Source of the DNA: Eledone cirrhosa
Lineage: Eukaryota
Direction of reading: 5' to 3'
Assembly (NCBI GenBank): GCA_964016885.1
Contig: OZ024742.1
Location: 289,416,001-289,480,000 of the forward strand
Length of the DNA: 64,000 nucleotides
Positions 1 through 63,960 of the stretch are shown here, piece after piece. Positions within the stretch are counted from its first letter, which is position 1, and every line of letters begins with the position of its first letter. The translations under genes and the position numbers were made by a program. The notes beneath the pieces were generated by a model. The model was not told the DNA's origin. It saw nothing but the letters and a program-made list of their open reading frames with translations, and did not search any database.

Positions 1-3000
1 CACCAACCACTCTATATCCTTCACCAAACACCAACCACCAACCTCTCTATATCCTTCACCAAACACCAACCATTAAATATCCTTCACCAAATACCAACCA
101 CTCAATATCATGAACCAAACACCAACCACTCTATATCCTTCACCAAACACCAACCACTCTATATCCTTCACGAAACACCAACCACTCAATATCCTATATC
201 AAATACCAACCACTCAATATCTTTCACGAAACACCAAGCACTCAATATCCTTCACCAAACACTCTATATGCTTCACCAAACACCAACCACTCTATATCCT
301 TCACCAAACACCAACCTCTCTATATCCTTCACCAAACACCAACCATTCAATATCGTTCACCAAATACCAACCACTCAATATCATTAACCAAACACCAACC
401 ACACTATATCCTTCACCAAACACCAATCACTCTATATCCTTCACCAATCACCAACCACTCAATATCCTTCACCAAACAACAACCACTCTATATCCTTCAC
501 CAAACACCAACAACTCTATATCCTTCACCAAACACCAACCACTCAATATCCTACACCAAATACCAACCACTCAATATCCTACACCAAATACCAACCACTC
601 AATATCTTTCACCAAACCCCAACCACTCAATATCCTTCACCAAACACCAACCACTCAATATCCTTCACCAAACACCAACCACTCTATATCCTTCACTAAA
701 CACCAACCACTCTATATCTTTCGCAAAACACCAACCACTCTATATCCTTCACCAAACACCAACCACCAACCATTCTATATCCTTCAACAAACACCAACCA
801 CTCAATATCCTTCACCAAACACCAACCACTCAATATCCTTCACCAAACACCAACCACTCAATATCCTTCACCAAACACCAACCACTCTATATTCTTCACC
901 AAACACCAACCAATCTATATCTTTCACGAAAATCCAACCACTCTATATACTTCACCAAACACCAACTACTCAATATCCTTCACCAAACACCAGCCACTCT
1001 ATATACTTCACCAAACACCAGCCACTCTATATCCTTCACCAAACATCAACCACTCAATATCCTTCACCAAACACCAGCCACTCAATATCCTTCACCAAAC
1101 ATCAACCACTCTATACCCTTCACCAAACACCAACCAATCTATCTTCTTCACCAAACACCAACCACTCAATATCTTTCACGAAACACCAACCACTCAATAT
1201 CCTTCTCCAAACACAAACCACTCAATATTCTTTACCAAATAAGAACCACTCTATATCCTTCACCAAACACCAACCACTCTATATACTTCACCAAACACCA
1301 ACCACTCTATATCCTTCACCAAACACCAACCTCTCAATATCCTTCACCAAACACCAACCACTCAATATCCTTCACCAAACACTAACCACTCTATGTCCTT
1401 CACCGAACACCAACCACTTAATATCCTTCACCAACCACTCAATATCCTTCACCAAACACCAACCACTCAATAACCTTCACCAAACACGAACCATTCAATA
1501 TCCTTCACCAAACACTCTATATGCTTCACCAAACACCAACCACTCTATATCCTTCACCAAACACCAACCACCAACCTCTCTCTATCCTTCACCAAACACC
1601 AACCACTAAATATCCTACACCAAATACCAACCACTCTCTATCCTTCACCAAACACCAACCACTAAATATCCTACACCAAATACCAACCACTCTCTATCCT
1701 TCACCAAACACCAACCACTAAATATCCTACACCAAATACCAACCACTCAATATCTTTCACCAATCACCAACCTCTCCATATCCTTCACCAAACACTCTAT
1801 ATGCTTCAACAAACACCAACCATTCAATATCCTTCACCAAATACCAACCACTCAATATCATTAACCAAACACCAACCACTCTATATCCTTCACCAAACAC
1901 CAACCACTCAATATCCTACACCAAATACCAACCACTCAATATCCTACACCAAATACCAACCACTCAATATCTTTCACCAAACACCAACCACACAATATCC
2001 TTCATCAAACACCAACCACTCAATATCCTTCACCAAACACCAACCACTAAATATTCTTCACCAAACACCAACCACTCTATATCCTTCACCAAACACCAAC
2101 CACCAACCACTCTATATCCTTCACCAAACACCAACCACTCTATATCCTTCACCAAACACCAACCACTCAATACGCTTCACCAAACACCAACCACTCTATA
2201 TCCTTCACCAAACACCAACCACTCAATACGCTTCACCAACCACCAACCACTCTATATCCTTCACCAAACACCAACCACTCAATACGCTTCACCAAACACC
2301 AACCACTCTATATCCTTCACCAAACACCAACCACTCTATATCTTTCACCAAACACCTACCACTCTATCTACTTCACCAAACACCAACCACTCTATATACT
2401 TCACCAAACACCAACCACCAACCTATCTATATCCTTCACCAAACACCAACCATTCAATATCCTTCACCAAATACCAACCACTTAATATCATTAACCAAAT
2501 ACCAACCACTCTATATCCTTCACCAAACACCAACCACTCTCTATCCTTCACCAAACACCAACCACTCAATATCCTACACCAAATAACAACCACTCAATAT
2601 CTTTCACCAAACACCAACCACTCTATATCCTTCACCAAACACCAACCACTCAATATCCTACACCAAACACCAACAACTCTGTATCCTTCACCAAATACCA
2701 ACCACTCTATATCCTTCACCAAGCACCAACCACTCTATATGCTTCACCAAACACCAACCACTCAATATCCTTCACCAAACACAAACCACTCAATGTTCTT
2801 TACCAAATAACAACCACTATATATCCTTCACCAAATAACAACCACTCTATATCCTTCACCAAACACCGACCTCTCAATATCCTTCACCAAACACCAACCA
2901 CTTAATATCCTTCACCAACCACTCAATATCCTTGACCAAACACCAACCACTCAATATCCTTCACCAAACACTCTATATGCTTCACCAAACACCAACCACT

Positions 3001-6000
3001 CTATATCCTTCACCAAACACCAACCACCAACCTCTGTATATCCTTCACCAAACACCAACAACTCAATATCCTTAACCAACCACTCTATATCCTTCACCAA
3101 ACACCAACCACCAACCTCTCTATATCCTTCACCAAACACCAACCATTCAATATCCTTCACCAAATTCCAACCACTTAATATCATTAACCAAATACCAACC
3201 ACTCTATATCCTTCACCAAACACCAACCACTCTGTATCCTTCACCAAACACCAACCACTCTCTATCCTTCACCAAACACCAACCACTCAATATCCTACAC
3301 GACATACCAACCAATCTATATCCTTCACCAAATACCAACTACTCAATATCCTTCACCAAACACCAACCACTCAATATCTTTCACCAAACACCAACCACTA
3401 AATATCCTTCACCAAACACTAACCACACTATGTCCTTCACCAAACACCAACCACTTAATATCCTTCACCAACCACTCAATATCCTTCACCAAACACTCTA
3501 TATCCTTCACCAAATACCAACCACTTAATATCATTAACCAAATACCAACCACTCTATATCCTTCACCAAACACTAACCACTCTCTATCCTTCACCAAACA
3601 CCAACCACTCAATATCCTACACCAAATAACAACCACTCAATATCTTTCACCAAACACCAACCACTCAATATCCTTCACCAAACACTCTATATGCTTCACC
3701 AAACACCAACCACTCTATATCCTTCACCAAACACCATCCTCTCTATATCCTTCACCAAACACCAACCATTCAATATCCTTCACCAAATACCAACCACTCA
3801 ATATCATTAACCAAACACCAACCACTCTATATCCTTCACCAAACACCAACCACTCAATATCCTACACCAAATACCAACCACTCAATATCCTACACCAAAT
3901 ACCAACCACTCAATATCTTTCACCAAACACCAACCACTCAATATCCTTCATCAAACACCAACCACTCAATATCCTTCACCAAACAACAACCACTCAATAT
4001 CCTTCACCAAACACCAACCACACAATATTCTTTACCAAACATCAACCACTCTATATCCTTCACCAAACACCAACCACTCAATATCCTTCACCAAACACCA
4101 ACCACTCAATATCCTACACCAAACACCAACAACTCTGTATACTTCACCAAACACCAACCGCTCTATATCCTTCACCAAGCACCAACCACTCTATATACTT
4201 CACCAAACACCAACCACTCATTATCCTTCACCAAACACAAACCACTCAATGTTCTTTACCACATAACAACCACTATATATCCTTCACCAAATAACAACCA
4301 CTCTATATCCTTCACCAAACACCGACCTCTCAATATCCTTCACCAAACACTAACCACTCTATGTCCTTCACCAAACACCAACCACTTAATATCCTTCACC
4401 AACCACTCAATATCCTTCACCAAACACTCTATATGCTTCACCAAACACCAACCACTCTATATCCTTCACCAAACACCAACCACCAACCTCTGTATATCCT
4501 TCACCAAACACCAACAGTTCAATATCCTTCACCAAATACCAACCACTCAATATCATTAACCAAACACCAACCACTCTCTATCCTTCACCAAAAAACAACC
4601 ACTCTATATCCTTCACCAAACACCAGCCACTCTATATCCTTCACTAAACACCAACCACTCAATATCCTTCACCAAACACCAACCACTCAACATCCTTCAC
4701 CAAACACCAACCACTCAATATCCTTCACCAAACACCAACCACTCAATATCCTTCACCAAACAACCACTCAATATCCTTCACCAAACACCAACAACTCAAT
4801 ATCCTTCACCAAACACCAACCACTCAATATCCTTCACCAAACACCAACCACTCAATATACTACACCAAACACAAACCACTCTATATCCTTCACCAAACAC
4901 TAACCACTCTATATCCTTCACCAAACACAAACCACTCTATATCCTTCACCAAACACCAACCACCAACCACTCTATATCCTTCACCAAACACCAACCACTC
5001 AATATCCTTCACCAAACACCAACCACTCAATACGCTTCACCAAACACTCTATATCTTTCACCAAACACCTACCACTCTATATACTTCACCAAACACCAAC
5101 CACTCTATATCGTTCACCAAACGCCAACCACTCTATATCGTTCACCAAAGATCAACCACTCTATACGCTTCACCAAACACCAACCAATCTATCTCCCTCA
5201 CCAAACACCAACCACTCAATATCCTTCACCAAACACCAACCACTCAATATCCTTTACCAAATAACAACCACTCTATATCCTTCACCAAACAACAACCACT
5301 CAATATACTTCACCAAATAACAACCAATCTATATCCTTCACCAAATACCAACTACTCAATATCCTTCGCCAAACACCAACCACTCAATATCCTTCACCAA
5401 ACACAAACCACTCAATATTCTTTACCAAATAACAACCACTATATATCCTTCACCAACCACTCAATATCCTTCACCAAACACTCTATATCCTTCACCAAAC
5501 ACCAACCACTCTCTATCCTTCACCAAAAATCAACCACTCTATATCCTTCACCAAACACCAACCACTCTATATCCTTCACCAAACACCAACCACTCAATAT
5601 CCTTCACCAAACACCGACCACTCAACATCCTTCACCAAACACCAACCACTCAATATCCTACACCAAACACTCTATATCCTTCACCAAACACCAACCACTC
5701 TATATCCTTCACCAAACACCAACCACTCTATATCCTTCACCAAGCACCAACCACCAACCACTCTATATGCTTCACCAAACACCAACCACTCAATATCCTT
5801 CACCAAACACCAACCACACAATATTCTTTACCACACACCAACCACTCTATATCCTTCACCAAACACCAACCACTCAATATCCTTCACCAAACACCAACAC
5901 AATATTCTTTACCAAACACCAACCACTATATATCCTTCACCAAACACCAACCTCTCAATATCCTTCACCAAACACCAACCACTCAATATCATACACCAAA

Positions 6001-6099
6001 CACCAACCACTCTTTATCTTTCACCAAATACCAACCACTCTATATCCTTCACCAAACACCAACCACTCTATATCCTTCACCAAGCACCAACCACCAACC

Positions 6100-32216: not shown

Positions 32217-35200
32217 TTCACCAAACACCAACCACTCAATATCTTTCACCAAACACCAACCACTAAATATCCTTTACCAAATAACAACCACTATATATCC
32301 TTCACCAAATAACAACCACTCTATATCCTTCACCAAACACCAACCTCTCAAAATCCTTCACCAAACACCAACCAATCAATATCCTTCACCAAACACTAGC
32401 CACTCTATGTCCTTCACCAAACACCAACCACTTAATATCCTTCACCAACCACTCAATATCCTTCACCAAACACTCTATATGCTTCACCAGTCACCAACCA
32501 CTCTATATCTTTCACCAAACACCAACCACTCAATATCCTTCACCAAACACCAACAACTCAATATCCTTCACCAAACACCAGCCACTCTATATCCTTCACC
32601 AAACACCAACCACTCTATATCTTTCACCAAACACCAACCACTCTATATCCTTCACCAAACACCAACCACCAACCACTCTATATCCTTCACCAAACACCAA
32701 CCAGTCAATATCCTTCACCAAACACCAACCACTCAATATCCTTCACCAAACACCAACCACTCTATATCCTTCACCAAACACCAACCACTCTATATCTTTC
32801 ACCAAACACCAACCACTCAATATCTTTCACCAAACACCAACCACTCAATATTACCTTCACCAAACACCAACCACTCAATATCCTTCACCAAACACCAACC
32901 ACTCTATATCCTTCACCAAACACCTACCACTTTATATACTTTACCAAACACCAACCACTCAATATCCTTCACCAAACACCAACCACTCTATATCCTTCAG
33001 CAAACACAAACCACTCAATATCCTTCACCAAACACCAACCACTCTATATCCTTCACCAAACACCAACCAATCTATCTCCTTCACGAAACACCAACCACTC
33101 AATATCCTTCACCAAACACCAACCACTTTATATCCTGCACCAAACACCAACCACTCTATATCCTTCACCAAACACAAACCACTCTATATCCTTCATCAAA
33201 CACCAACCTCTTAATATCTTTCACCAAACACCAACCACTAAATATCCTTCACCAAACACCAACCACTCTATATCCTTCACAAAACACCAACCACTCTATA
33301 TCCTTCACCAAACACCAACCACTCGATATCCTTCACCAAACACTCTATATGCTTGACCAAACACCAACCACTCAATATCCTTCACCAAACACCAACCACT
33401 CTATATCCTTCACCAAACACCAACCACTCTATATCCTTCACCAAACACCAGCCACTCAATATCCTTCACCAAACACTCTATATGCTTCACCAAAGACCAA
33501 CCACTCTATATCCTTCACCAAACACCAACCACTCTATATCATGCACCAAACACCAACCACTCAATACGCTTCACCAAACACCAACCACTCTATATCCTTC
33601 ACCAAACACCAACCACTTTATATCTTTCACCAAACACCAACCACTCTATATACTTCACCAAACAACAACCACTCTATATCCTTCACCAAACACCAACCAC
33701 TCTATATCTTTCACCAAACGCCAACCACTCTATATCCTTCACCAAACCTCAACCACTCTATATCCTTCACGAAACATCAACCACTCAATATCCTTCACCA
33801 AACACCAACCACTCAATATCTTTCACCAAACACTTTATATCCTGCACCAAACACCAACCACTCAATATCCTTTACAAAATAACAACCACTCTATATCCTT
33901 TACCAAACAACAACCACTCCATATCCTTCACCAAATAACAACCAATCTATATCCTTCACCAAATACCAACTACTCAATATCCTTCACCAAACACCAACCA
34001 CTCAATAACTTTCACCAAACACCAACCACTAAATATCCTTCACCAAACACCAACCACTCAATATCCTTCACCAAACACAAACCAATCAATATTCTTTACC
34101 AAATAACAACCACTATATATCCTTCACCAAATAACAACCACTCTATATCCTTCACCAAACACCAACCTCTCAATATCCTTCACCAAACACCAACCACTCA
34201 ATATCCTTCACCAAATACTAACCACTCTATGTCCTTCACCAAACACCAACCACTTAATATCCTTCACCAACCACTCAATATCCTTCACCAAACACTCTAT
34301 ATGCTTCACCAATCACCAACCACTCTATATCCTTCACCAAACACCAACCACTCTATATCCTTCACCAAACACTAACCACTCTCTATCCTTCACCAAACAA
34401 CAACCACTCTATATCCTTCACCAAACACCAACCACTCTATATCCTTCACCAAACACCAACTACTCAATATCCTTCACCAAACACCAACCACTCTATATCC
34501 TTCACCAAACACCAACCACTCTATATCTTTCACCAAACACGAACCACTCTATATCCTTCACCAAACACCAACCACTCTATATACTTCACCAAACAGCAGC
34601 CACTCTATAACCTTCACTAAACATCAACCACTCTATATCCTTCACCAAACACCAAACACTCAATATACTTTACCAAACACCAACCACTCAATATCCTTCA
34701 CCAAACACCAACCACTCAATATCCTTCACCAAACACCAACCACTCTATATCCTTCACCAAACACCTACCACTCTATATACTTTACCAAACACCAACTACT
34801 CAATATCCTTCACCAAACACCAACCAATCTATATCCTTCACCAAACACCAACCACTCTATATCTTTCACCAAACACGAACCACTCTATATCCTTCACCAA
34901 ACACCAACCACTCTATATACTTCACCAAACAGCAGCCACTCTATAACCTTCACTAAACATCAACCACTGTATATCCTTCAGCAAACACAAACCACTCAAT
35001 ATCCTTCACCAAACACCAACCACTCTATATCCTTCACCAAACACCAACCAATCTATCTCCTTCACGAAACACCAATCACTCAATATCCTTCACCAAACAC
35101 CAACCACTTTATATCCTGCACCAAACACCAACCACTCTATATCCTTCACCAAACAACAACCACTTAATATCCTTCACCAAATAACAACCAATTTATATCC

Positions 35201-38200
35201 TTCACCAAATACCAACTACTCAATATCCTTCACCAAATTCAACCACTTAATATCCTGCACCAAACACCAACCACTCAATATCTTTCACCAAACACAAACC
35301 ACTCTATATCCTTCACCAAACACCAACCTCTTAATATCTTTCACCAAACACCAACCACTAAATATCCTTCACCAAACACCAACCACTCTATATCCTTCAC
35401 CAAACACCAACCACTCTATATCCTTCGCCAAACACCAACCACTCAATATCCTTCACCAAACACTCTATATGCTTCACCAAACACCAACCACTCAATATCC
35501 TTCACCAAACACCAACCACTCTATATCCTTCACCAAACACCAACCACTCTATATCCTTCACCAAACACCAACCACTCAATATCCTTCACCAAACACTCTA
35601 TATGCTTCACCAAACACCAACCACTCTATATCCTTCACCAAACACCAACCACTCTATATCCTTCCCCAAACACCAACCACTCAATATCCTTCACCAAACA
35701 CTCTATATCCTTCACCAAACACCAACCACTCCATATCCTTCACCAAACACCAACCACTATATATCCTTCACCAAACACCAACCACTCAATATCCTTCACC
35801 AAACACCAACCACACAATACGCTTAACCAAACACCAACCACTCTATATCCTTCACCAAACACCAACCACTCTATATCTTTCACCAAACACCAACCACTCT
35901 ATATCTTTCACCAAACACCAACCACTCTATATACTTCACCAAACAACAACCACTCTATATCCTTCACCAAACACCAACCACTCTATATCCTTCACCAAAC
36001 GCCAACCACTCTATATCCTTCACCAAACATCAACCACTCTATATCCTTCACCAAACACCAACCACTCAATATCTTTTACCAAAAATCTTTATATCCTGCA
36101 CCAAACACCAACCACTCAATATCCTTTACAAAATAACAACCACTCAATATCCTTCACCAAACTCCAACCACTCAATATCCTTCACCAAATAACAACAAAT
36201 CTATATCCTTCACCAAATACCATCTACTCAATATCCTTCACCAAACACCAACCACTCAATATCTTTCACCAAACACCAACCACTAAATATCCTTCACCAA
36301 ATAACAACCACTATATATCCTTCACCAAATAACAACCACTCTATATCCTTCACCAAACACCAACCTCTCAAAATCCTTCACCAAACACCAACCAATCAAT
36401 ATCCTTCACCAAACACTAACCACTCTATGTCCTTCACCAAACACCAACCACTTAATATCCTTCACCAACCACTCAATATCCTTCACCAAACACTCTATAT
36501 GCTTCACCAGTCACCAACCACTCTATATCTTTCACCAAACACCAACCACTCAATATCCTTCACCAAACACCAACCACTCAATATCCTTCACCAAACACTC
36601 TATATGCTTCACCAATCACCAACCACTCTATATCCTTCACCAAACACTAACCACTCTCTATCCTTCACCAAACAACAACCACTCTATATCCTTCACCAAA
36701 CACCAACCACTCTATATCCTTCACCAAACACCAACTACTCAATATCCTTCACCAAACACCAACCACTCTATATCCTTCACCAAACACCAACCACTCTATA
36801 TCTTTCACCAAACACGAACCACTCTATATCCTTCACCAAACACCAACCACTCTATATACTTCACCAAACAGCAGCCACTCTATAACCTTCACTAAACATC
36901 AACCACTCTATATCCTTCACCAAACACCAAACACTCAATATACTTTACCAAACACCAACCACTCAATATCCTTCACCAAACACCAACCACTCAATATCCT
37001 TCACCAAACACCAACCACTCTATATCCTTCACCAAACACCTACCACTCTATATACTTTACCAAACACCAACTACTCAATATCCTTCACCAAACACCAACC
37101 AATCTATATCCTTCACCAAACACCAACCACTCTATATCTTTCACCAAACACGAACCACTCTATATCCTTCACCAAACACCAACCACTCTATATACTTCAC
37201 CAAACAGCAGCCACTCTATAACCTTCACTAAACATCAACCACTCTATATCCTTCACCAAACACCAACCACTCAATATGCTTCACCAAACACGAACCACTC
37301 AATATCCTTCACCAAACACCAACCACTCTATATCCTTCACCAAACACCTACCACTCTATATACTTTACCAAACACCAACTACTCAATATCCTTCACCAAA
37401 CACGAACCAATCTATATACTTCACCAAACAGCAGCCACTCTATAACCTTCACTAAACATCAACCACTGTATATCCTTCAGCAAACACAAACCACTCAATA
37501 TCCTTCACCAAACACCAACCACTCTATATCCTTCACCAAACACCAACCAATCTATCTCCTTCACGAAACACCAATCACTCAATATCCTTCACCAAACACC
37601 AACCACTTTATATCCTGCACCAAACACCAACCACTCTATATCCTTCACCAAACAACAACCACTTAATATCCTTCACCAAATAACAACCAATTTATATCCT
37701 TCACCAAATACCAACCACTCAATATCTTTCACCAAACACAAACCACTCTATATCCTTCACCAAACAACAACCACTTAATATCCTTCACCAAATACCAACC
37801 ACTCAATATCTTTCACCAAACACCAACCACTCTATATCCTTCACCAAACACCAACCTCTTAATATCTTTCACCAAACACCAACCACTAAATATCCTTCAC
37901 CAAACACCAACCACTCTATATCCTTCACCAAACACCAACCACTCTATATCCTTCACCAAACACCAACCACTCAATATCCTTCACCAAACACTCTATATGC
38001 TTCACCAAACACCAACCACTCAATATCCTTCACCAAACACCAACCACTCTATATCCTTCACCAACCACCAACCACTCTATATCCTTCACCAAACACCAAC
38101 CACTCAATATCCTTCACCAAACACTCTATATGCTTCACCAAACACCAACCACTCTATATCCTTCACCAAACACCAACCACTCTATATCCTTCCCCAAACA

Positions 38201-41200
38201 CCAACCACTCAATATCCTTCACCAAACACTCTATATCCTTCACCAAACACCAACCACTCAATATCCTACACCAAACACCAACCTCTCTATATCCTTCACC
38301 AAACACCAACCACTCAATATCCTTCACCAAACACCAACCACTCAATATCCTTCACCAAACACCAACCACTCAATATCCTTCACCAAACACCAACCACTCT
38401 ATATCCTTCACCAAACACCAACCACTCTATATCTTTCACTAAACACCAACCACTCTATATCTTTCACCAAACACCAACCACTCTATATCCTTCACCAAAC
38501 ACCAACCACTCTATATCTTTCACTAAACACCAACCACTCTATATCTTTCACCAAACACCAACCACTCAATATCTTTCACCAAACACCAACCACTAAATAT
38601 CCTTTACCAAATAACAACCACTATATATCCTTCACCAAATAACAACCACTCTATATCCTTCACCAAACACCAACCTCTCAAAATCCTTCACCAAACACCA
38701 ACCAATCAATATCCTTCACCAAACACTAGCCACTCTATGTCCTTCACCAAACACCAACCACTTAATATCCTTCACCAACCACTCAATATCCTTCACCAAA
38801 CACTCTATATGCTTCACCAGTCACCAACCACTCTATATCTTTCACCAAACACCAACCACTCAATATCCTTCACCAAACACCAACAACTCAATATCCTTCA
38901 CCAAACACCAGCCACTCTATATCCTTCACCAAACACCAACCACTCTATATCTTTCACCAAACACCAACCACTCTATATCCTTCACCAAACACCAACCACC
39001 AACCACTCTATATCCTTCACCAAACACCAACCAGTCAATATCCTTCACCAAACACCAACCACTCAATATCCTTCACCAAACACCAACCACTCTATATCCT
39101 TCACCAAACACCAACCACTCTATATCTTTCACCAAACACCAACCACTCAATATCTTTCACCAAACACCAACCACTCAATATTACCTTCACCAAACACCAA
39201 CCACTCAATATCCTTCACCAAACACCAACCACTCTATATCCTTCACCAAACACCTACCACTTTATATACTTTACCAAACACCAACCACTCAATATCCTTC
39301 ACCAAACACCAACCACTCTATATCCTTCAGCAAACACAAACCACTCAATATCCTTCACCAAACACCAACCACTCTATATCCTTCACCAAACACCAACCAA
39401 TCTATCTCCTTCACGAAACACCAACCACTCAATATCCTTCACCAAACACCAACCACTTTATATCCTGCACCAAACACCAACCACTCTATATCCTTCACCA
39501 AACACAAACCACTCTATATCCTTCATCAAACACCAACCTCTTAATATCTTTCACCAAACACCAACCACTAAATATCCTTCACCAAACACCAACCACTCTA
39601 TATCCTTCACAAAACACCAACCACTCTATATCCTTCACCAAACACCAACCACTCGATATCCTTCACCAAACACTCTATATGCTTGACCAAACACCAACCA
39701 CTCAATATCCTTCACCAAACACCAACCACTCTATATCCTTCACCAAACACCAACCACTCTATATCCTTCACCAAACACCAGCCACTCAATATCCTTCACC
39801 AAACACTCTATATGCTTCACCAAAGACCAACCACTCTATATCCTTCACCAAACACCAACCACTCTATATCATGCACCAAACACCAACCACTCAATACGCT
39901 TCACCAAACACCAACCACTCTATATCCTTCACCAAACACCAACCACTTTATATCTTTCACCAAACACCAACCACTCTATATACTTCACCAAACAACAACC
40001 ACTCTATATCCTTCACCAAACACCAACCACTCTATATCTTTCACCAAACGCCAACCACTCTATATCCTTCACCAAACCTCAACCACTCTATATCCTTCAC
40101 GAAACATCAACCACTCAATATCCTTCACCAAACACCAACCACTCAATATCTTTCACCAAACACTTTATATCCTGCACCAAACACCAACCACTCAATATCC
40201 TTTACAAAATAACAACCACTCTATATCCTTTACCAAACAACAACCACTCCATATCCTTCACCAAATAACAACCAATCTATATCCTTCACCAAATACCAAC
40301 TACTCAATATCCTTCACCAAACACCAACCACTCAATAACTTTCACCAAACACCAACCACTAAATATCCTTCACCAAACACCAACCACTCAATATCCTTCA
40401 CCAAACACAAACCAATCAATATTCTTTACCAAATAACAACCACTATATATCCTTCACCAAATAACAACCACTCTATATCCTTCACCAAACACCAACCTCT
40501 CAATATCCTTCACCAAACACCAACCACTCAATATCCTTCACCAAATACTAACCACTCTATGTCCTTCACCAAACACCAACCACTTAATATCCTTCACCAA
40601 CCACTCAATATCCTTCACCAAACACTCTATATGCTTCACCAATCACCAACCACTCTATATCCTTCACCAAACACCAACCACTCTATATCCTTCACCAAAC
40701 ACTAACCACTCTCTATCCTTCACCAAACAACAACCACTCTATATCCTTCACCAAACACCAACCACTCTATATCCTTCACCAAACACCAACTACTCAATAT
40801 CCTTCACCAAACACCAACCACTCTATATCCTTCACCAAACACCAACCACTCTATATCTTTCACCAAACACGAACCACTCTATATCCTTCACCAAACACCA
40901 ACCACTCTATATACTTCACCAAACAGCAGCCACTCTATAACCTTCACTAAACATCAACCACTCTATATCCTTCACCAAACACCAAACACTCAATATACTT
41001 TACCAAACACCAACCACTCAATATCCTTCACCAAACACCAACCACTCAATATCCTTCACCAAACACCAACCACTCTATATCCTTCACCAAACACCTACCA
41101 CTCTATATACTTTACCAAACACCAACTACTCAATATCCTTCACCAAACACCAACCAATCTATATCCTTCACCAAACACCAACCACTCTATATCTTTCACC

Positions 41201-44200
41201 AAACACGAACCACTCTATATCCTTCACCAAACACCAACCACTCTATATACTTCACCAAACAGCAGCCACTCTATAACCTTCACTAAACATCAACCACTGT
41301 ATATCCTTCAGCAAACACAAACCACTCAATATCCTTCACCAAACACCAACCACTCTATATCCTTCACCAAACACCAACCAATCTATCTCCTTCACGAAAC
41401 ACCAATCACTCAATATCCTTCACCAAACACCAACCACTTTATATCCTGCACCAAACACCAACCACTCTATATCCTTCACCAAACAACAACCACTTAATAT
41501 CCTTCACCAAATAACAACCAATTTATATCCTTCACCAAATACCAACTACTCAATATCCTTCACCAAATTCAACCACTTAATATCCTGCACCAAACACCAA
41601 CCACTCAATATCTTTCACCAAACACAAACCACTCTATATCCTTCACCAAACACCAACCTCTTAATATCTTTCACCAAACACCAACCACTAAATATCCTTC
41701 ACCAAACACCAACCACTCTATATCCTTCACCAAACACCAACCACTCTATATCCTTCGCCAAACACCAACCACTCAATATCCTTCACCAAACACTCTATAT
41801 GCTTCACCAAACACCAACCACTCAATATCCTTCACCAAACACCAACCACTCTATATCCTTCACCAAACACCAACCACTCTATATCCTTCACCAAACACCA
41901 ACCACTCAATATCCTTCACCAAACACTCTATATGCTTCACCAAACACCAACCACTCTATATCCTTCACCAAACACCAACCACTCTATATCCTTCCCCAAA
42001 CACCAACCACTCAATATCCTTCACCAAACACTCTATATCCTTCACCAAACACCAACCACTCCATATCCTTCACCAAACACCAACCACTATATATCCTTCA
42101 CCAAACACCAACCACTCAATATCCTTCACCAAACACCAACCACACAATACGCTTAACCAAACACCAACCACTCTATATCCTTCACCAAACACCAACCACT
42201 CTATATCTTTCACCAAACACCAACCACTCTATATCTTTCACCAAACACCAACCACTCTATATACTTCACCAAACAACAACCACTCTATATCCTTCACCAA
42301 ACACCAACCACTCTATATCCTTCACCAAACGCCAACCACTCTATATCCTTCACCAAACATCAACCACTCTATATCCTTCACCAAACACCAACCACTCAAT
42401 ATCTTTTACCAAAAATCTTTATATCCTGCACCAAACACCAACCACTCAATATCCTTTACAAAATAACAACCACTCAATATCCTTCACCAAACTCCAACCA
42501 CTCAATATCCTTCACCAAATAACAACAAATCTATATCCTTCACCAAATACCATCTACTCAATATCCTTCACCAAACACCAACCACTCAATATCTTTCACC
42601 AAACACCAACCACTAAATATCCTTCACCAAATAACAACCACTATATATCCTTCACCAAATAACAACCACTCTATATCCTTCACCAAACACCAACCTCTCA
42701 AAATCCTTCACCAAACACCAACCAATCAATATCCTTCACCAAACACTAACCACTCTATGTCCTTCACCAAACACCAACCACTTAATATCCTTCACCAACC
42801 ACTCAATATCCTTCACCAAACACTCTATATGCTTCACCAGTCACCAACCACTCTATATCTTTCACCAAACACCAACCACTCAATATCCTTCACCAAACAC
42901 CAACCACTCAATATCCTTCACCAAACACTCTATATGCTTCACCAATCACCAACCACTCTATATCCTTCACCAAACACTAACCACTCTCTATCCTTCACCA
43001 AACAACAACCACTCTATATCCTTCACCAAACACCAACCACTCTATATCCTTCACCAAACACCAACTACTCAATATCCTTCACCAAACACCAACCACTCTA
43101 TATCCTTCACCAAACACCAACCACTCTATATCTTTCACCAAACACGAACCACTCTATATCCTTCACCAAACACCAACCACTCTATATACTTCACCAAACA
43201 GCAGCCACTCTATAACCTTCACTAAACATCAACCACTCTATATCCTTCACCAAACACCAAACACTCAATATACTTTACCAAACACCAACCACTCAATATC
43301 CTTCACCAAACACCAACCACTCAATATCCTTCACCAAACACCAACCACTCTATATCCTTCACCAAACACCTACCACTCTATATACTTTACCAAACACCAA
43401 CTACTCAATATCCTTCACCAAACACCAACCAATCTATATCCTTCACCAAACACCAACCACTCTATATCTTTCACCAAACACGAACCACTCTATATCCTTC
43501 ACCAAACACCAACCACTCTATATACTTCACCAAACAGCAGCCACTCTATAACCTTCACTAAACATCAACCACTCTATATCCTTCACCAAACACCAACCAC
43601 TCAATATGCTTCACCAAACACGAACCACTCAATATCCTTCACCAAACACCAACCACTCTATATCCTTCACCAAACACCTACCACTCTATATACTTTACCA
43701 AACACCAACTACTCAATATCCTTCACCAAACACGAACCAATCTATATACTTCACCAAACAGCAGCCACTCTATAACCTTCACTAAACATCAACCACTGTA
43801 TATCCTTCAGCAAACACAAACCACTCAATATCCTTCACCAAACACCAACCACTCTATATCCTTCACCAAACACCAACCAATCTATCTCCTTCACGAAACA
43901 CCAATCACTCAATATCCTTCACCAAACACCAACCACTTTATATCCTGCACCAAACACCAACCACTCTATATCCTTCACCAAACAACAACCACTTAATATC
44001 CTTCACCAAATAACAACCAATTTATATCCTTCACCAAATACCAACCACTCAATATCTTTCACCAAACACAAACCACTCTATATCCTTCACCAAACAACAA
44101 CCACTTAATATCCTTCACCAAATACCAACCACTCAATATCTTTCACCAAACACCAACCACTCTATATCCTTCACCAAACACCAACCTCTTAATATCTTTC

Positions 44201-44897
44201 ACCAAACACCAACCACTAAATATCCTTCACCAAACACCAACCACTCTATATCCTTCACCAAACACCAACCACTCTATATCCTTCACCAAACACCAACCAC
44301 TCAATATCCTTCACCAAACACTCTATATGCTTCACCAAACACCAACCACTCAATATCCTTCACCAAACACCAACCACTCTATATCCTTCACCAACCACCA
44401 ACCACTCTATATCCTTCACCAAACACCAACCACTCAATATCCTTCACCAAACACTCTATATGCTTCACCAAACACCAACCACTCTATATCCTTCACCAAA
44501 CACCAACCACTCTATATCCTTCCCCAAACACCAACCACTCAATATCCTTCACCAAACACTCTATATCCTTCACCAAACACCAACCACTCAATATCCTACA
44601 CCAAACACCAACCTCTCTATATCCTTCACCAAACACCAACCACTCAATATCCTTCACCAAACACCAACCACTCAATATCCTTCACCAAACACCAACCACT
44701 CAATATCCTTCACCAAACACCAACCACTCTATATCCTTCACCAAACACCAACCACTCTATATCTTTCACTAAACACCAACCACTCTATATCTTTCACCAA
44801 ACACCAACCACTCTATATCCTTCACCAAACACCAACCACTCTATATCTTTCACTAAACACCAACCACTCTATATCTTTCACCAAACACCAACCACTC
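32217..44897. repeat. Near-perfect 6330-bp tandem duplication (two copies)
   Basis: Identical pseudo-ORFs at a constant 6330 offset (32407/38737, 33353/39683, 35469/41799, 36427/42757), plus matching ORF starts at 37997/44327. Confidence 0.92.
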
Positions 44898-45139
44898 TAT
44901 ATCCTTCACCAAACGCCAACCACTCTATATCCTTCACCAAACATCAACCACTCTATATCCTTCACCAAACACCAACCAATCTATCTCCTTCACCAAACAC
45001 CAACCACTCAATATCTTTCACCAAAAATCTTTATATCCTTCACCAAACACCAACCACTCTATATACTTTACCAAACAGCAGCCACTCTATATCCTTCACC
45101 AAATTCAACCACTTAATATCCTTCACCAAACACCAACCA

Positions 45140-51100: not shown

Positions 51101-53073
51101 ACCACTCAATATCTTTCACCAAACACAAACCACTCTATATCCTTCACCAAACACCAACCTCTTAATATCTTTCACCAAACACCAACCACTAAATATCCTT
51201 CACCAAACACCAACCACTCTATATCCTTCACCAAACACCAACCACTCTATATCCTTCGCCAAACACCAACCACTCAATATCCTTCACCAAACACTCTATA
51301 TGCTTCACCAAACACCAACCACTCAATATCCTTCACCAAACACCAACCACTCTATATCCTTCACCAAACACCAACCACTCTATATCCTTCACCAAACACC
51401 AACCACTCAATATCCTTCACCAAACACTCTATATGCTTCACCAAACACCAACCACTCTATATCCTTCACCAAACACCAACCACTCTATATCCTTCCCCAA
51501 ACACCAACCACTCAATATCCTTCACCAAACACTCTATATCCTTCACCAAACACCAACCACTCCATATCCTTCACCAAACACCAACCACTATATATCCTTC
51601 ACCAAACACCAACCACTCAATATCCTTCACCAAACACCAACCACACAATACGCTTAACCAAACACCAACCACTCTATATCCTTCACCAAACACCAACCAC
51701 TCTATATCTTTCACCAAACACCAACCACTCTATATCTTTCACCAAACACCAACCACTCTATATACTTCACCAAACAACAACCACTCTATATCCTTCACCA
51801 AACACCAACCACTCTATATCCTTCACCAAACGCCAACCACTCTATATCCTTCACCAAACATCAACCACTCTATATCCTTCACCAAACACCAACCACTCAA
51901 TATCTTTTACCAAAAATCTTTATATCCTGCACCAAACACCAACCACTCAATATCCTTTACAAAATAACAACCACTCAATATCCTTCACCAAACTCCAACC
52001 ACTCAATATCCTTCACCAAATAACAACAAATCTATATCCTTCACCAAATACCATCTACTCAATATCCTTCACCAAACACCAACCACTCAATATCTTTCAC
52101 CAAACACCAACCACTAAATATCCTTCACCAAATAACAACCACTATATATCCTTCACCAAATAACAACCACTCTATATCCTTCACCAAACACCAACCTCTC
52201 AAAATCCTTCACCAAACACCAACCAATCAATATCCTTCACCAAACACTAACCACTCTATGTCCTTCACCAAACACCAACCACTTAATATCCTTCACCAAC
52301 CACTCAATATCCTTCACCAAACACTCTATATGCTTCACCAGTCACCAACCACTCTATATCTTTCACCAAACACCAACCACTCAATATCCTTCACCAAACA
52401 CCAACCACTCAATATCCTTCACCAAACACTCTATATGCTTCACCAATCACCAACCACTCTATATCCTTCACCAAACACTAACCACTCTCTATCCTTCACC
52501 AAACAACAACCACTCTATATCCTTCACCAAACACCAACCACTCTATATCCTTCACCAAACACCAACTACTCAATATCCTTCACCAAACACCAACCACTCT
52601 ATATCCTTCACCAAACACCAACCACTCTATATCTTTCACCAAACACGAACCACTCTATATCCTTCACCAAACACCAACCACTCTATATACTTCACCAAAC
52701 AGCAGCCACTCTATAACCTTCACTAAACATCAACCACTCTATATCCTTCACCAAACACCAAACACTCAATATACTTTACCAAACACCAACCACTCAATAT
52801 CCTTCACCAAACACCAACCACTCAATATCCTTCACCAAACACCAACCACTCTATATCCTTCACCAAACACCTACCACTCTATATACTTTACCAAACACCA
52901 ACTACTCAATATCCTTCACCAAACACCAACCAATCTATATCCTTCACCAAACACCAACCACTCTATATCTTTCACCAAACACGAACCACTCTATATCCTT
53001 CACCAAACACCAACCACTCTATATACTTCACCAAACAGCAGCCACTCTATAACCTTCACTAAACATCAACCAC
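45140..53073. repeat. Copy of ~29310-37240 at offset 15831-15832
   Basis: Landmarks 30173/46004, 30721/46552, 31470/47301, 32407/48238 and 36427/52258. Only a few differences seen, near 45488, 47449 and 50981, plus a 1-nt A-run difference near 30073. Confidence 0.9.
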
Positions 53074-56000
53074 TGTATATCCTTCAGCAAACACAAACCA
53101 CTCAATATCCTTCACCAAACACCAACCAATCTATCTCCTTCACGAAACACCAATCACTCAATATCCTTCACCAAACACCAACCACTTTATATCCTGCACC
53201 AACCACCAACCACTCTATATCCTTCACCAAACAACAACCACTTAATATCCTTCACCAAATAACAACCAATTTATATCCTTCACCAAATACCAACTACTCA
53301 ATATCCTTCACCAAATTCAACCACTTAATATCCTGCACCAAACACCAACCACTCAATATCTTTCACCAAACACAAACCACTCTATATCCTTCACCAAACA
53401 CCAACCTCTTAATATCTTTCACCAAACACCAACCACTAAATATCCTTCACTAAACACCAACCACTCTATATCCTTCACCAAACACCAACCACTCTATATC
53501 CTTCGCCAAACACCAACCACTCAATATCCTTCACCAAACACTCTATATGCTTCACCAAACACCAACCACTCAATATCCTTCACCAAACACCAACCACTCT
53601 ATATCCTTCACCAAACACCAACCACTCTATATCCTTCACCAAACACCTACCACTCAATATCCTTCACCAAACATTCTATATGCTTCACCAAACACCAACC
53701 ACTCTATATCCTTCACCAAACACCAACCACTATATATCCTTCACCAAACACCAACCACTCAATATCCTTCACCAAACACCAACCACTCTATATCCTTCAC
53801 CAAACACCAACCACTCTATATCCTTCACCAAACACCAACCACTCAATATCTTTCACCAAACACTCTATATGCTTCACCAAACACCAACCACTCTATATCC
53901 TTCACCAAACACCAACCACTCTATATCCTTCCCCAAACACCAACCACTCAATATCCTTCACCAAACACTCTATATCCTTCACCAAACACCAACCACTCCA
54001 TATCCTTCACCAAACACCAACCACTATATATCCTTCACCAAACACCAACCACTCAATATCCTTCACCAAACACCAACCACACAATACGCTTAACCAAACA
54101 CCAACCACTCTATATCTTTCACCAAACACCAACCACTCTATATCTTTCACCAAACACCAACCACTCTATATACTTCACCAAACAACAACCACTCTATATC
54201 CTTCATCAAACACCAACCACTCTATATCCTTCACCAAACGCCAACCACTCTATATCCTTCACCAAACATCAACCACTCTATATCCTTCACCAAACACCAA
54301 CCACTCAATATCTTTTACCAAAAATCTTTATATCCTGCACCAAACACCAACCACTCAATATCCTTTACAAAATAACAACCACTCAATATCCTTCACCAAA
54401 CTCCAACCACTCAATATCCTTCACCAAATAACAACAAATCTATATCCTTCACCAAATACCATCTACTCAATATCCTTCACCAAACACCAACCACTCAATA
54501 TCTTTCACCAAACACCAACCACTAAATATCCTTCACCAAATAACAACCACTATATATCCTTCACCAAATAACAACCACTCTATATCCTTCACCAAACACC
54601 AACCTCTCAAAATCCTTCACCAAACACCAACCAATCAATATCCTTCACCAAACACTAACCTCTCTATGTCCTTCACCAAACACCAACCACTTAATATCCT
54701 TCACCAACCACTCAATATCCTTCACCAAACACTCTATATGCTTCACCAGTCACCAACCACTCTATATCTTTCACCAAACACCAACCACTCAATATCCTTC
54801 ACCAAACACCAACCACTCAATATCCTTCACCAAACACCAGCCACTCTATATCCTTCACCAATCACCAACCACTCTATATCCTTCACCAAACACCAACCAC
54901 CAACCACTCTATATCCTTCACCAAACACCAACCAGTCAATATCCTTCACCAAACACCAACCACTCAATATCCTTCACCAAACATCAACCACTCTATATCC
55001 TTCACCAAACACCAACCACTCTATATCCTTCACCAAACACCAACCACTCAATATCTTTCACCAAACACCAACCACTCAATATCCTTCACCAAACACCAAC
55101 CACTCAATATCCTTCACCAAACACCAACCACTCTATATCCTTCACCAAACACCTACCACTCTATATACTTTACCAAACACCAACTACTCAATATCCTTCA
55201 CCAAACACCAACCACTCTATATACTTCACCAAACAGCAGCCACTCTATAACCTTCACCAAACATCAACCACTCTATATCCTTCAGCAAACACAAACCACT
55301 CAATATCCTTAACCAAACACCAATCACTCTATATCCTTCACCAAACACTAACCAATCTATCTCCTTCACGAACACCAACCACTCAATATCCTTCACCAAA
55401 CAACAACCACTTAATATCCTTCACCAAACACAAACCACTCTATATCCTTCACCAAACACCAACCTCTTAATATCTTTCACCAAACACCAACCACTAAATA
55501 TCCTTCACCAAACACCAACCACTCAATATCCTTCACCAAATTCAACCACTTAATATCCTTCACCAAACACCAACCACTCAATATCTTTCACCAAACACAA
55601 ACCACTCTATATCCTTCACCAAACACCAACCTCTTAATATCTTTCACCAAACACCAACCACTAAATATCCTTCACCAAACACCAACCACTCTATATCCTT
55701 CACCAAACACCAACCACTCTATATCCTTCACCAAACACCAACCACTAAATATCCTTCACCAAACACCAACCACTCAATATCCTTCACCAAACACTCTATA
55801 TGCTTCACCAAACACCAACCACTCTATATACTTCACCAAACAACAACCACTCTATATCTTTCACCAAACGCCAACCACTCTATATCCTTCACCAAACATC
55901 AACCACTCTATATCCTTCACCAAACATCAACCACTCTATATCCTTCACCAAACATCAACCACTCTATATCCTTCACCAAACATCAACCACTCTATACCCT

Positions 56001-59000
56001 TCACCAAACACCAACCAATCTATCTACTTCACCAAACACCAACAACTCAATATCTTTCACCAAACACTTTATATCCTGCACCAAACACCAACCACTCAAT
56101 ATCCTTTACAAAATAACAACCACTCTATATCCTTCACCAAACAACAACCACTCCATATCCTTCACCAAATAACAACCAATCTATATCCTTCACCAAATAC
56201 CAACTACTCAATATCCTTCACTAAACACCAACCACTCAATAACTTTCACCAAACACCAACCACTAAATATCCTTCACCAAACACTAACCACTCTCTATCC
56301 TTCACTAAACACCAACCACCAACCACTCAATAACTTTCACCAAACACTAACCACTCTCTATCCTTCACCAAACACCAACCACTCTATATCTTTCACCAAA
56401 CACCAACCACTCAATATCTTTCACCAAACACCAACCAGTCAATATCCTTCACCAAACACCAACCACTCAATATCCTTCACCAAACACAAACCAGTCAATA
56501 TCCTTCACCAAACACCAAACACTCTATATGCTTCACCAATCACCAACCACTCTATATCCTTCACCAAACACCAACCACTCTATATCCTTCACCAAATACC
56601 AACTACTCAATATCCTTCACTAAACACCAACCACTCTATATCTTTCACCAAACACCAACCACTCAATATCTCTCACCAAACACCAACCACTAAATATCCT
56701 TCACCAAACACCAACCTCTCAATATCCTTCACCAAACACCAACCAATCAATATCCTTCACCAAACACTAACCACTCTATGTCCTTCACCAAACACCAACC
56801 ACTTAATATCCTTCACCAAACACCAACCACTTAATATCCTTCACCAACCACTCAATATCCTTCACCAAACACTCTATATGCTTCACCAATCACCAACCAC
56901 TCTATATCCTTCACCAAACACCAACCACTCTATATCCTTCACCAAATACCAACTACTCAATATCCTTCACTAAACACCAACCACTCTATATCTTTCACCA
57001 AACACCAACCACTCTTTATCCTTCACCAAACACCAACCACCAACCACTCTATATCCTTCACCAAACACCAACCAGTCAATATCCTTCACCAAACACCAAC
57101 CACTCAATATCCTTCACCAAACACCAACCACTCTATATCCTTCACCAAACACCAACCACTCTATATCTTTCACCAAACACCAACCACTCAATATCTTTCA
57201 CCAAACACCAAAGACTCAATATTCTTCACCAAACACCAACCATTAAATATCCTTCACCAAACACCAACCACTCTATATCCTTCACCAAACACCTACCACT
57301 CTATATACTTTACCAAACACCAACTACTCAATATCCTTCACCAAACACCAACCACTCTATATACTTCAACAAACAGCAGCCACTCTATAACCTTCACCAA
57401 ACATCAACCACTCTATATTCTTCAGCAAACACAAACCACTCAATATCCTTCACCAAACACCAACCACTCTATATCCTTCACCAAACACCAACCAATCTAT
57501 CTCTTTCACGAAACACCAACCACTCAATATCCTTCACCAAACACCAACCACTTTATATCCTGCACCAAACACCAACCACTCTATATCCTTCACCAAACAA
57601 CAACCACTTAATATCCTTCACCAAACACCAACGACTAAATATCCTTCACCAAACACCAACCACTCAATATCCTTCACCAAATTCAACCACTTAATATCCT
57701 TCACCAAACACCAACCACTCAATATCTTTCACCAAACACAAACCACTCTATATCCTTCACCAAACACCAACCTCTTAATATCTTTCACCAAACACCAACC
57801 ACTAAATATCCTTCACCAAACACCAACCACTCTATATCCTTCACCAAACACCAACCACTCTATATCCTTCACCAAACACCAACCACTCAATATCCTTCAC
57901 CAAACACTCTATATGCTTCACCAAACACCAACCACTCAATATCCTTCACCAAACACCAACCACTCTATATCCTTCACCAAACACCAACCACTCTATATCC
58001 TTCACCAAACACCAACCACTCTATATCCTTCACCAAACACCAACCACTCAATATCCTTCACCAAACACTCTATATGCTTCACCAAACACCAACCACTCTA
58101 TATCCTTCACCAAACACCAACCACTCTATATCCTTCACCAAACACCAACCACTCAATATCTTTCACCAAACATCAACCACTCTACATCCTTTACCAAACA
58201 TCAACCACTCTATACCCTTCACCAAATACCAACCAATCTATCTCCTTCACCAAACACCAACCACTCAATATCCTTCACCAAACACCAACCACTTTATATC
58301 CTTCACCAAACAACAACCACTCAATATCCTTCACCAAACACCAACCAATTTATCTCCTTCACCAAATACCAACTACTCAATATCCTTCACCAAACACCAA
58401 CCACTCAATATCTTTCACCAAACACCCTAAATATCCTTCACCAAACACCAACCACTCAATATCCTTCACCAAATTCAACCACTCTATATCTTTCACCAAA
58501 CACCAACCACGCAATATCCTTCACTAAACACAAACCACTCAATATCCTTTACCAAATAACAACCACTCTATATCCTTCACCAAACACCAACCTCTCAATA
58601 TCCTTCACAAAACACCAACCACTCAATATCCTTCACCAAACACTAACCACTCTATGTCCTTCACCAAACACCAACCACTTAATATCCTTCACCAACCACT
58701 CAATATCCTACACCAAATACCAACCACTCTATATCCTTCACCAAACACCAACCACTCAATATCCTTCACCAAACACAACCACTTAATATCCTTCACCAAA
58801 TACCAACCACTTTATATCCTTCACCAAACACCAACCACTCAATATCTTTCACCAAACACAAACCACTCTATATCCTTCACCAAACACTAACTAATGTATA
58901 TCCTTCACCAAACACCAACCACTAAATATCCTTCACCAAACCCCAACCACTCAATATCCTTCACCAAACACCAATCACTCAATATCCTTCACCAAACACC

Positions 59001-60732
59001 AACCATTCAATATCCTTCACAATACAACAACCACTCAATATCCTTCACCAAACAACAACCACTCAATATCCTTCACCAAATACCAATCACTCAATATCCT
59101 TCACCAAACACCAACCATTCAATATCCTTCACCAAACACCAACCATTCAATATCCTTCACCAAACACCTACCACTCAATATCCTTCACCAAACACCAACC
59201 ACTCTATATCCTTCACCAAACACCAACCACTCTATATCCTTCACCAACCTCTCTATATCCTTCACCAAACACTAACCACTCAATATCCTTCACGAAACAC
59301 CAACCACTCTATATCCTTCACCAAACACCAACCACTCTATACCCTTCACCAAACACCAAACACTCAATATCCTTCACCAAACACCAATCAATCTATATCA
59401 TTCGACAAACACTCTATATCTTTCATCAAACACCAACCACTTAATATCCTTCACCAAACACCAACCACTCAATATCCTTCACCAAACACCAACCACTCTA
59501 TATCCTTCACAAATCACCAACCTCTCAATATCCTTCACCAAACACCAACCACTCTATATCCTTCACCAAATACCAACCACTCAATATCCTTCACCAAACA
59601 CCAATCAATCTATATCATTCACCAAACACTCTATATCTTTCATCAAACACCAACCACTTAATATCCTTCACCAAACACCAACCACTCAATATCCTTCACC
59701 AAACACCAACCACTCAATATCATTCACCAAACACGAACCACTCAATATCTTTCACCAAACACCAACCTCTCTATATCCTTCACCAAATACCAACCACTCA
59801 ATATCCTTCACCAAACACCAACCACTCAATATCTTTCACCAAACACGAACCACTCTATATCTTTCACCAAACACGAACCACTCTAAATCCTTCACCAAAC
59901 ACGAACCACTCAATATCCTTCACCAAACACCAACCACTCAATATCCTTCACCAAACACCTACCACTCAATATCCTTCACCAAACACCAACCACTCTATAT
60001 CCTTCACCAAACACCAACCACTCTATATCCTTCACCAACCACTCTAAATCCTTCACCAAACACCAACCTCTCTATATCCTTCACCAAATACCAACCACTC
60101 AATATCCTTCACCAAACACCAACCACTCAATATCTTTCACCAAACACCAACCACTCTATATCTTTCACCAAACACGAACCACTCTAAATCCTTCACCAAA
60201 CACGAACCACTCAATATCCTTCACCAAACACCAACCACTCAATATCCTTCACCAAACACCTACCACTCAATATCCTTCACCAAACACCAACCACTCTATA
60301 TCCTTCACCAAACACCAACCACTCTATATCCTTCACCAACCACTCTAAATCCTTCACCAAACACCAACCACTCTATATACTTTACCAAATACCAACCACT
60401 CAATATCCTTCACCAAACACGAACCACTCAATATCCTTCACCAAATACCAACCACTCTAAATCTGTCACCAAACACCAACCACTCAATATCCTTCACCAA
60501 ACACGAACCACTCAATATCCTTTACCAAATACCAACCACTCAATATCCTTCACCAAACACCAACCACTCTAAATCCTTCACCAAACACGAACCACTCTAA
60601 ATCCTTCACCAACACCAACCACTCAATATCCTTCACCAAACACGAACCACTCTAAATCCTTCACCAACACCAACCACTCAATATCCTTCACCAAATACCA
60701 ACCACTCAATATCCTTACTTAATATAACTTAC

Positions 60733-60806
60733 TTCTCTTCCTCTTCTTCTATTTTCACTTCAGTGCTTAACTGTTTCTCGTGTAACAACTTTAGTCTGTT
60801 TCTTTC
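60733..60806 (-). CDS. Coding exon C (74 nt, phase 0 to 2) of an unidentified coiled-coil-like protein: ERNRLKLLHEKQLSTEVKIEEEEE(K/N)
   Basis: Minus strand reads TTTTATTGACATCTTTCATTGTAG | GAAAGAAAC...GAAGAGAA | GTAAGT. Only the phase-0 frame is open and it matches the phase of exon B. If unspliced it reads K then TAA, so it could instead be a terminal exon. Confidence 0.8.
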
Positions 60807-60847
60807 CTACAATGAAAGATGTCAATAAAATTATTTCTCAGCGAAAA

Positions 60848-61600: not shown

Positions 61601-61626
61601 TTTAAATATGTTAAATATACGTTAAT

Positions 61627-62010: not shown

Positions 62011-62092
62011 GTTGTGGGACCAACATAACTGTACATTGAAAGGGGCGGTGTGGATGGGGTGGAGGTGGTGGGACAATACATGTTCAACTTAC

Positions 62093-63958: not shown

Positions 63959-63960
63959 TA

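Follow-up and report, generated by a model that had tools for sequence, protein, structure and literature searches.

A 28-bp minisatellite fills a predicted 69.8-kb intron of an ANKRD26-like gene in the octopod Eledone cirrhosa

Large introns filled with repeats are known from the Y-linked genes of Drosophila and, at a small scale, from human variable number tandem repeats (VNTRs). The simple satellites of the Drosophila Y loops have units of about 5 bp and also occur elsewhere in the fly genome. The kl-3 and kl-5 genes contain megabase introns built of simple satellites and are linked to the proteins Blanks and Heph, according to the available sections of their description (PMC6508621). For the Drosophila testis, the accessible part of another study (PMC11207136) reports that genes with 50-100-kb introns show no consistent down-regulation under splicing knock-down, in contrast to the giants on the Y, and that Pzl, Myo81F and Mitf also seem less sensitive to the loss of splicing than these giants. 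The 25-bp VNTR of human ABCA7 includes a splice donor and causes the use of a cryptic donor and skipping of the next exon, both of which rise with array length (PMC5954066, in the sections available). Here we describe a 64,000-nt stretch of the genome of Eledone cirrhosa, hereafter the window (C3:289,416,001-289,480,000; contig OZ024742.1 of the 3.0-Gb assembly GCA_964016885.1), most of which is taken up by a 28-bp minisatellite lying in an intron of an ANKRD26-like gene. In this genome such introns lie in conserved single-copy genes, and each has a repeat unit of its own. No description of array-filled introns in cephalopods was found in the literature searched, which was mostly open-access and did not extend to supplements, where tables of tandem repeats may be placed. 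By term look-up, the available parts of three cephalopod genome papers (PMC9795677, PMC13652810, PMC12682272) contain nothing on such introns, nor does the first third of the O. vulgaris repeat annotation (PMC13282606).

Intron C-D and its host gene

The intron between exons C and D is 69,797 nt long and extends on the minus strand from C3:289,476,732 to 289,406,936, with GT-AG ends. Tandem repeat makes up 99.9% of it; about 42 nt are non-repeat, and it contains no N letters. The part assigned to it in the window from exon frame and homology spans 1-60732 (minus strand), and the remaining 9,065 nt lie outside, where the array stretches about 9 kb to the left. The intron opens with a GTAAGT donor at 60732 and a non-repeat head (60717-60732, minus strand) that holds an in-frame TAA at 60731-60729 and a second donor-like site, GTAAGG, at 60718. 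The array begins 16 nt into the intron and occupies 1-60716 of the window. At its far side it ends 26 nt ahead of the AG acceptor. This non-repeat tail consists of a U-rich tract and the AG, and the A at -26, the first base past the array, is branch-point-like by consensus. The acceptor is followed by exon D, which is 64 nt long and runs from phase 2 to phase 0 (C3:289,406,935-872, or L002:935-872). Exon D keeps the reading frame of exon C, and 16 of 21 residues agree with Octopus residues 1405-1425. Three Octopus homologues run uninterrupted across the C-D junction. An automatic frame-preserving junction search chose the same C donor and D acceptor. Exon E was ruled out as the direct partner of exon C, since the closer phase-2 exon D matches the homologues.

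The original prediction, made from the window, had proposed a satellite-filled intron and expected the coding sequence to resume in phase 2 beyond the array. Both proposals hold: the array closes at an acceptor, exon D lies to the left of the window, and the flanking exons join in frame. The reported positions (array to 60716, donor at 60732, TAA at 60731-60729) and the lengths of the two upstream introns (379 and 1,286 nt) are all correct as well. The possibility that exon C is the terminal exon is contradicted by at least six exons past the array, which lead to the conserved C-terminus and a stop. Intron C-D is predicted, from homology and not from RNA, to be a spliceosomal intron. The ends of the array were compared with short-read DNA contigs of three runs (X1-X3) from one sample, possibly that of the assembly itself, which behave as genomic DNA. 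In all three runs contigs bridge the unique flank and the array at the acceptor end. At the donor end one of the three does so with at least 31 letters on both sides (21 gap letters), and the contigs of the other two get 30 letters into the array. These contigs check the array ends only and not its interior length.

The host gene is called ANKRD26-like after the source labels of several cluster members. A query with a downstream exon gave three proteins among 24 candidates, all from Octopus (XP_029640334.1, CAI9714731.1 and A0A0L8FR23), at 84% identity; exon by exon, the identity ranges from 50 to 94%. The E. cirrhosa gene is of the same family as these ANKRD26-like proteins, with N-terminal ankyrin repeats and a C-terminal coiled coil. 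Pfam assigns Ank families to residues 55-254 of homologue P0002, and the matching exons are present in order in the genome, while the coiled coil was judged by composition. No further family was detected by Pfam in P0004 and P0007 at E values up to 1. Match chaining over 604 kb arranged at least 35 exons in order across 449 kb. With P0006, GT-AG junctions were found at 33 of 34 consecutive match pairs; the single miss involves a match whose start falls on a stop ahead of its acceptor, and unmatched exons are probably hidden within some of the pairs. In a stricter first look, all eight genome matches of the C-terminal homologue P0001 fell at this locus, and the gene appears to be single-copy. 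Two ordinary introns, of 52.4 and 48.6 kb, are filled with transposons and lack minisatellite arrays of at least 1 kb. The acceptor region of exon F is present in three or four decayed copies just upstream of the real acceptor (L003:1500-1160, minus strand).

The Octopus homologues lie on sequences of 200-226 Mb, which we take to be the largest chromosomes, and the locus itself on the 379-Mb C3. The octopus Z chromosome is chr17, or former chr20, according to the available part of a preprint (bioRxiv 10.1101/2024.02.21.581452). Judged by the location of the homologues, the locus is probably autosomal. E. cirrhosa has four giant chromosomes (443, 416, 379 and 379 Mb), followed by C5-C10 of at most 135 Mb; the giants exceed the 200-226-Mb Octopus sequences and may have arisen by fusions.

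Upstream of the intron, the window holds three exons of the gene on the minus strand. Exon A (62523-62592) shares 83-87% identity with the Octopus homologues and has tandem acceptors, so that it starts at 62592 or 62589 with the frame unchanged. It is followed by intron A-B (62144-62522, 379 nt, phase 0), exon B (62093-62143, 51 nt, 88% identity), intron B-C (60807-62092, 1,286 nt, phase 0) and exon C (60733-60806, 74 nt), which encodes a coiled-coil segment and ends in phase 2. Intron B-C contains 3′ tails of a very abundant long interspersed nuclear element (LINE), which we take to be of the RTE type. The tail at 61626-62081 has an internal 112-bp tandem duplication, contains a motif resembling the 28-bp unit and reaches a summed contig depth above 1 million, compared with about 10 for unique DNA. 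A full-length relative of this LINE in intron E-F (L003:8900-5750) has a 1,050-codon open frame with endonuclease, reverse transcriptase and a PHD-like finger. An internally deleted mariner with 28-nt inverted ends of 96% complementarity lies at 63212-63960, within a decayed LINE fragment, and retains a 160-codon N-terminal transposase frame (Mos1 helix-turn-helix). An Rfam scan of 59000-64000 gave no matches.

Structure of the 28-bp array

Tandem Repeats Finder reports one 28-bp array in the window (29-60716, 2,202 copies, 85% matches), with the plus-strand unit CACCAAACACCAACCACTCWATATCCTT. The complete array measures about 69.75 kb and comprises about 2,524 units, which are G/U-rich on the gene strand. 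Variant units account for 412 of the 2,496 parsed; those of 21 and 35 bp have lost or gained 7 bp. When the two commonest units were searched across the genome, every one of the 572 exact matches fell inside intron C-D. The array is a single-locus head-to-tail minisatellite with variant units.

Throughout the array the units show 4.4-5.4% divergence from the column majority. A BLAST self-comparison gave nothing usable, and duplications were scored by a unit-level diagonal scan with a threshold of 30, where shuffled unit order reaches 4. Near-exact duplicates of at least 30 units hold 54% of the units and lie exclusively mid-array; the latest growth therefore probably took place by multi-kb duplication. 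The largest duplicates comprise 286 units with four differing and 229 units with none differing. The latter form an exact tandem duplication of 6,330 bp (32219-44879), which sits within 9.5-kb and 15.8-kb-offset near-exact duplications. The identity of these copies hints at an ongoing or recent change in length. The perfect 6.3-kb copy, 9% of the array length, could also be an assembly error.

The gene strand of intron C-D is almost clean of RNA-processing signals. Its 69.8 kb contain no pyrimidine-tract-AG, no AATAAA or ATTAAA and 21 GTRAG, compared with 348 pyrimidine-tract-AG, 43 AATAAA or ATTAAA (32 of them AATAAA) and 68 GTRAG in the ordinary 48.6-kb intron of the same gene. GTAAG occurs once at the array edge and once inside the array. 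Three-tier G-quadruplex motifs are absent from intron C-D, and the predicted fold of six array units was unaffected when quadruplexes were allowed. A coding tandem repeat was rejected for both strands: on the gene strand the longest stop-free run is 105 codons, and the 788-codon run on the opposite strand is matched by 73 of 100 shuffles of unit order. Derivation of the unit from the donor sequence is not significant either, as 117 of 2,000 shuffles equal the likeness between unit and intron head. The unit agrees with the tail of the RTE-like LINE in 18 of 21 columns, a post hoc comparison reached by 7 of 1,000 shuffles for the chosen tail and by 34 of 1,000 for the whole flank. Seeding of the 28-bp unit by this tail is at most a lead.

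Other arrays in the gene, in RAD54B and in the genome

A second intron of the ANKRD26-like gene is likewise filled by an array. This intron (150,730 nt, C3:289,695,992-289,545,263) consists to 98.8% of a 40-bp array whose motif has all of its 2,729 genome-wide matches within the intron. The 40-bp array is C-rich on the gene strand, a polarity opposite to that of the 28-bp unit. It has degenerate precursor-like units at both ends and is broken by a 2.8-kb, 5′-truncated RTE-like LINE with a (GAT)n-type tail (L038:8439-L039:1221). The 40-bp unit is unrelated to the 28-bp one, as 761 of 1,000 shuffles score equally well, and neither shared ancestry nor a long duplex between their introns has support. 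Both fully read introns are gap-free in the assembly, and the two arrays make up 48% of the 449-kb gene. Four smaller arrays of 0.7-3.9 kb were also noted, two of them in introns of the ANKRD26-like gene (26-bp unit, L016:960-4899; 83-bp unit, L075:4899-7184) and two others with units of 52 bp (L009:32-2574) and 35 bp (L007:4854-5579). They may represent early stages of the same process.

The RAD54B gene (C3:288,525,806-288,727,266) is located 0.75 Mb from the ANKRD26-like locus; one of its exons shares 92% identity with Argonauta hians and 86% with Octopus sinensis. Two consecutive array-filled introns flank a 150-nt exon with the SNF2 DEGH motif. One of them, about 121.5 kb long, has a 43-45-bp unit, and all 12 stretches sampled, together with its end in L152, are array. 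The other, of 55.1 kb, has a 22-bp unit that starts about 17 nt past a GTAAGT donor. These introns account for 177 of the approximately 201 kb of RAD54B, and the gaps between the remaining matched exons do not exceed about 3 kb. The original prediction had seen intron C-D as the best candidate in the window for an undescribed system. The same build is found in another intron of the ANKRD26-like gene and twice in RAD54B, and it is therefore a feature of the genome and not a system devoted to one gene. A fifth array, with a 36-bp unit and about 32 kb long, lies between the two genes; no adjoining exon was found for it. A RAD54-family match of 607 residues and 45% identity is present at C6:17,347,907-17,349,733 in one intronless open frame, which is unusual in an intron-rich genome. 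It is a candidate retrocopy or single-exon RAD54-like gene.

To estimate how frequent arrays are in the genome, 120 probes of 5 or 10 kb were spread evenly, and arrays of at least 3 kb with units of 10-130 bp that are not TA-dominated were counted. This filter excluded a 7-bp array filling one probe, 310- and 468-bp arrays, TA microsatellites and a 63-bp array cut at 2.9 kb. The probe midpoint fell in an array in three of the 20 probes within 2.5 Mb of the locus and in seven of the 100 elsewhere (95% interval 2.9-13.9%); regional enrichment is not significant by these probes (Fisher p 0.37). The 7% figure is rough, as the four largest chromosomes hold 92 of the 100 probes, and 20 or more of the 100 are no further than 20 Mb from the locus. 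Eight units, the 43-bp unit not among them, were searched genome-wide: two are proven single-locus, four fit one locus (matches on one strand, the first 100 places listed lying together), and the 87- and 19-bp units are multi-locus. The idea that all arrays are private was thus rejected, and so was the idea that all of them abut exons, since a simple scan of the available flanks gave no convincing adjoining exon for the 36-, 39-, 16-, 19-, 87-, 20- and 63-bp arrays. Long arrays, many of them private, are a common feature of this genome. The 19-bp satellite has 20,172 exact matches, on one strand and on at least two chromosomes (L125, C5:60.0 Mb; L214, C1:279.4 Mb), and adjoins an assembly gap and another AT-rich array; it is a candidate centromeric or major satellite. 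The 75-87-bp repeat family (L190, C1:430.0 Mb) is dispersed, with 3,315 matches on both strands, covering at least 8.9 kb at C1:430.0 Mb and short runs at the other places listed.

Origin of the arrays and comparison with known systems

We propose as the likely explanation that private arrays grew by multi-kb duplication inside introns, were tolerated there and are spliced by the ordinary machinery. This growth would be neutral, within the limits that splicing sets. A short unit would arise inside a small intron, vary through 7-bp slippage and then grow by unequal exchange or conversion, until growth halts at the splice signals on each side. If its sense strand is free of acceptor-like and poly(A) signals, a unit could be copied thousands-fold while the mRNA stays intact, and exon definition would recognise exons C and D and join them. 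Transcription proceeds at 1-3 kb per minute. At this rate the cost would be added transcription time, about 25-70 min for intron C-D and 2.5-7.5 h for the 449-kb gene. Several points weigh against this explanation. The five regional arrays make up about 31% of the 1.35 Mb around the locus, exceeding the 7% background, and two genes harbour four of these arrays. Both the ANKRD26-like gene and RAD54B could be active in the germline, which makes a link between the arrays and germline expression possible. Two of the four intronic arrays, a small sample, begin less than 20 nt from the donor, and such starts are not obviously predicted by plain drift. A strand filter on the units is weak: it favours the gene strand in the 40-bp array (0 GTRAG, against 3,481 on the opposite strand) and in the 22-bp array (1 pyrimidine-tract-AG against 349), whereas GTRAG is higher on the gene strand in the 28-bp (21 against 0) and 43-bp arrays (98 against 6), and most short units would be free of such sites by chance. 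In addition, array length was read in one assembly of one species.

A selected role of the arrays, as a programme or timer resembling the Y loops, is unlikely in our view. Under this explanation the arrays would be kept for lampbrush-like, protein-bound loops or for the timing of germ-cell expression. ANKRD26 is reportedly a ciliary transition-fibre protein (PMC7198521), RAD54B is a recombination factor, and both are plausibly active in spermatocytes, functions that would suit such a role, as would the large share of arrays in the two genes (48% of one, 177 of about 201 kb of the other). Intron-length timers have been proposed for genes of 10-80 kb, as the accessible part of the testis study reports (PMC11207136). 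However, the array introns measure 55-150 kb and not megabases, the four distinct units of mixed polarity offer no common binding motif, and similar arrays stand in several other places with no adjoining exon in the exon scan. The Octopus homologues are on the 200-226-Mb sequences and not on the Z (chr17 or former chr20). In the parts available of the same study (PMC11207136), splicing knock-down has less effect on Drosophila genes with 50-100-kb introns and on the autosomal giants. In a variant that we regard as similarly improbable, a transcription-linked expansion, begun beside splice donors and favouring germline-active genes, would convert small introns of single-copy genes in this octopod lineage into private minisatellite blocks of 50-150 kb. 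Each intron would then bear an RNA barcode of its own, and the genes would behave as autosomal, sequence-independent Y loops whose length governs timing or loop formation in germ cells.

The array might instead modulate splicing in the manner of the ABCA7 VNTR, its length or the donor-like site at 60718 tuning the share of productive mRNA, an explanation to which we assign a low probability. Use of 60718 would add 14 nt including the TAA, skipping of exon C or D alone would shift the frame, and skipping of both (138 nt) would drop 46 residues in frame. The array does adjoin the donor and has a second GTAAG at its edge, the identical 6,330-bp duplication suggests that its length is still changing, and ABCA7 offers a precedent for a length-dependent splicing change with a 25-bp VNTR (PMC5954066, sections available). 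The 28-bp unit, however, has no donor consensus, GTAAG occurs just once inside the array besides the edge site, and the unit shows no significant resemblance to the intron head (117 of 2,000 shuffles). A splicing effect could moreover reflect a cost and not a function, and it is compatible with tolerated growth. Less probable still is an artefact or a dead gene, that is, a mis-joined or over-expanded array, or a gene cut with exon C as its terminal exon. The zero-difference duplicate could be assembler-made, and the bridging short-read contigs may share the sample of the assembly. Removal of the duplicate would nevertheless shorten the array by just 9%, intron C-D is free of N, and no poly(A) signal is present on the gene strand of the array. 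The exons keep order, strand and phase on either side of the array, 33 of 34 P0006 match pairs have GT-AG junctions, and the stricter first look at the genome gave no second copy of the exons downstream.

Taken alone, intron C-D is a modest finding; a genome-wide habit of private intron-filling arrays is more interesting. With a probe against one such unit, a single intron of a single gene can be marked. Such private units make nascent-RNA imaging, elongation through pure repeat and the order of splicing measurable, whereas the shared fly satellites hinder this. If about 7% of the genome consists of such arrays, they would be a considerable source of genome expansion in an octopod. If the arrays are neutral, a pure-repeat intron of 70-150 kb needs no special programme. 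Short intron limits in annotation pipelines would split genes of this kind; one cephalopod pipeline sets the limit at 20 kb in the available part of its description (PMC9795677).

Similar to kl-3 and kl-5, the ANKRD26-like gene and RAD54B appear as coding genes transcribed through near-pure tandem-repeat introns, several per gene. Unlike in these megabase-scale genes, the introns measure 55-150 kb, with a largest intron of 150,730 nt in a 449-kb gene, the units are 22-45 bp long and private where tested instead of (AATAT)n or (AAGAC)n, and the locus probably lies on an autosome. The original prediction's likening of the locus to kl-3 and kl-5, and its suggestion that special processing may be required, are unsupported by a 69.8-kb intron with a private unit set against multi-megabase genes. 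The ordinary 52.4- and 48.6-kb transposon-filled introns of the same gene further argue against special processing, as do the Drosophila genes with 50-100-kb introns that are not consistently down-regulated (PMC11207136, accessible part). Drosophila Pzl, Myo81F and Mitf offer a further parallel as autosomal genes with large repeat-rich introns, according to the same sections (PMC11207136). The closest analogy is the VNTR in intron 18 of human ABCA7, also a single-locus array with a 25-28-bp unit at or near a donor and a second donor-like site nearby. The E. cirrhosa array is about seven times the length of the 9.7-kb expanded ABCA7 allele (PMC5954066, sections available), fills its intron to the branch-point region, carries multi-kb higher-order duplications and has no splice donor in its unit. 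By this analogy, intron C-D resembles a very large intronic VNTR.

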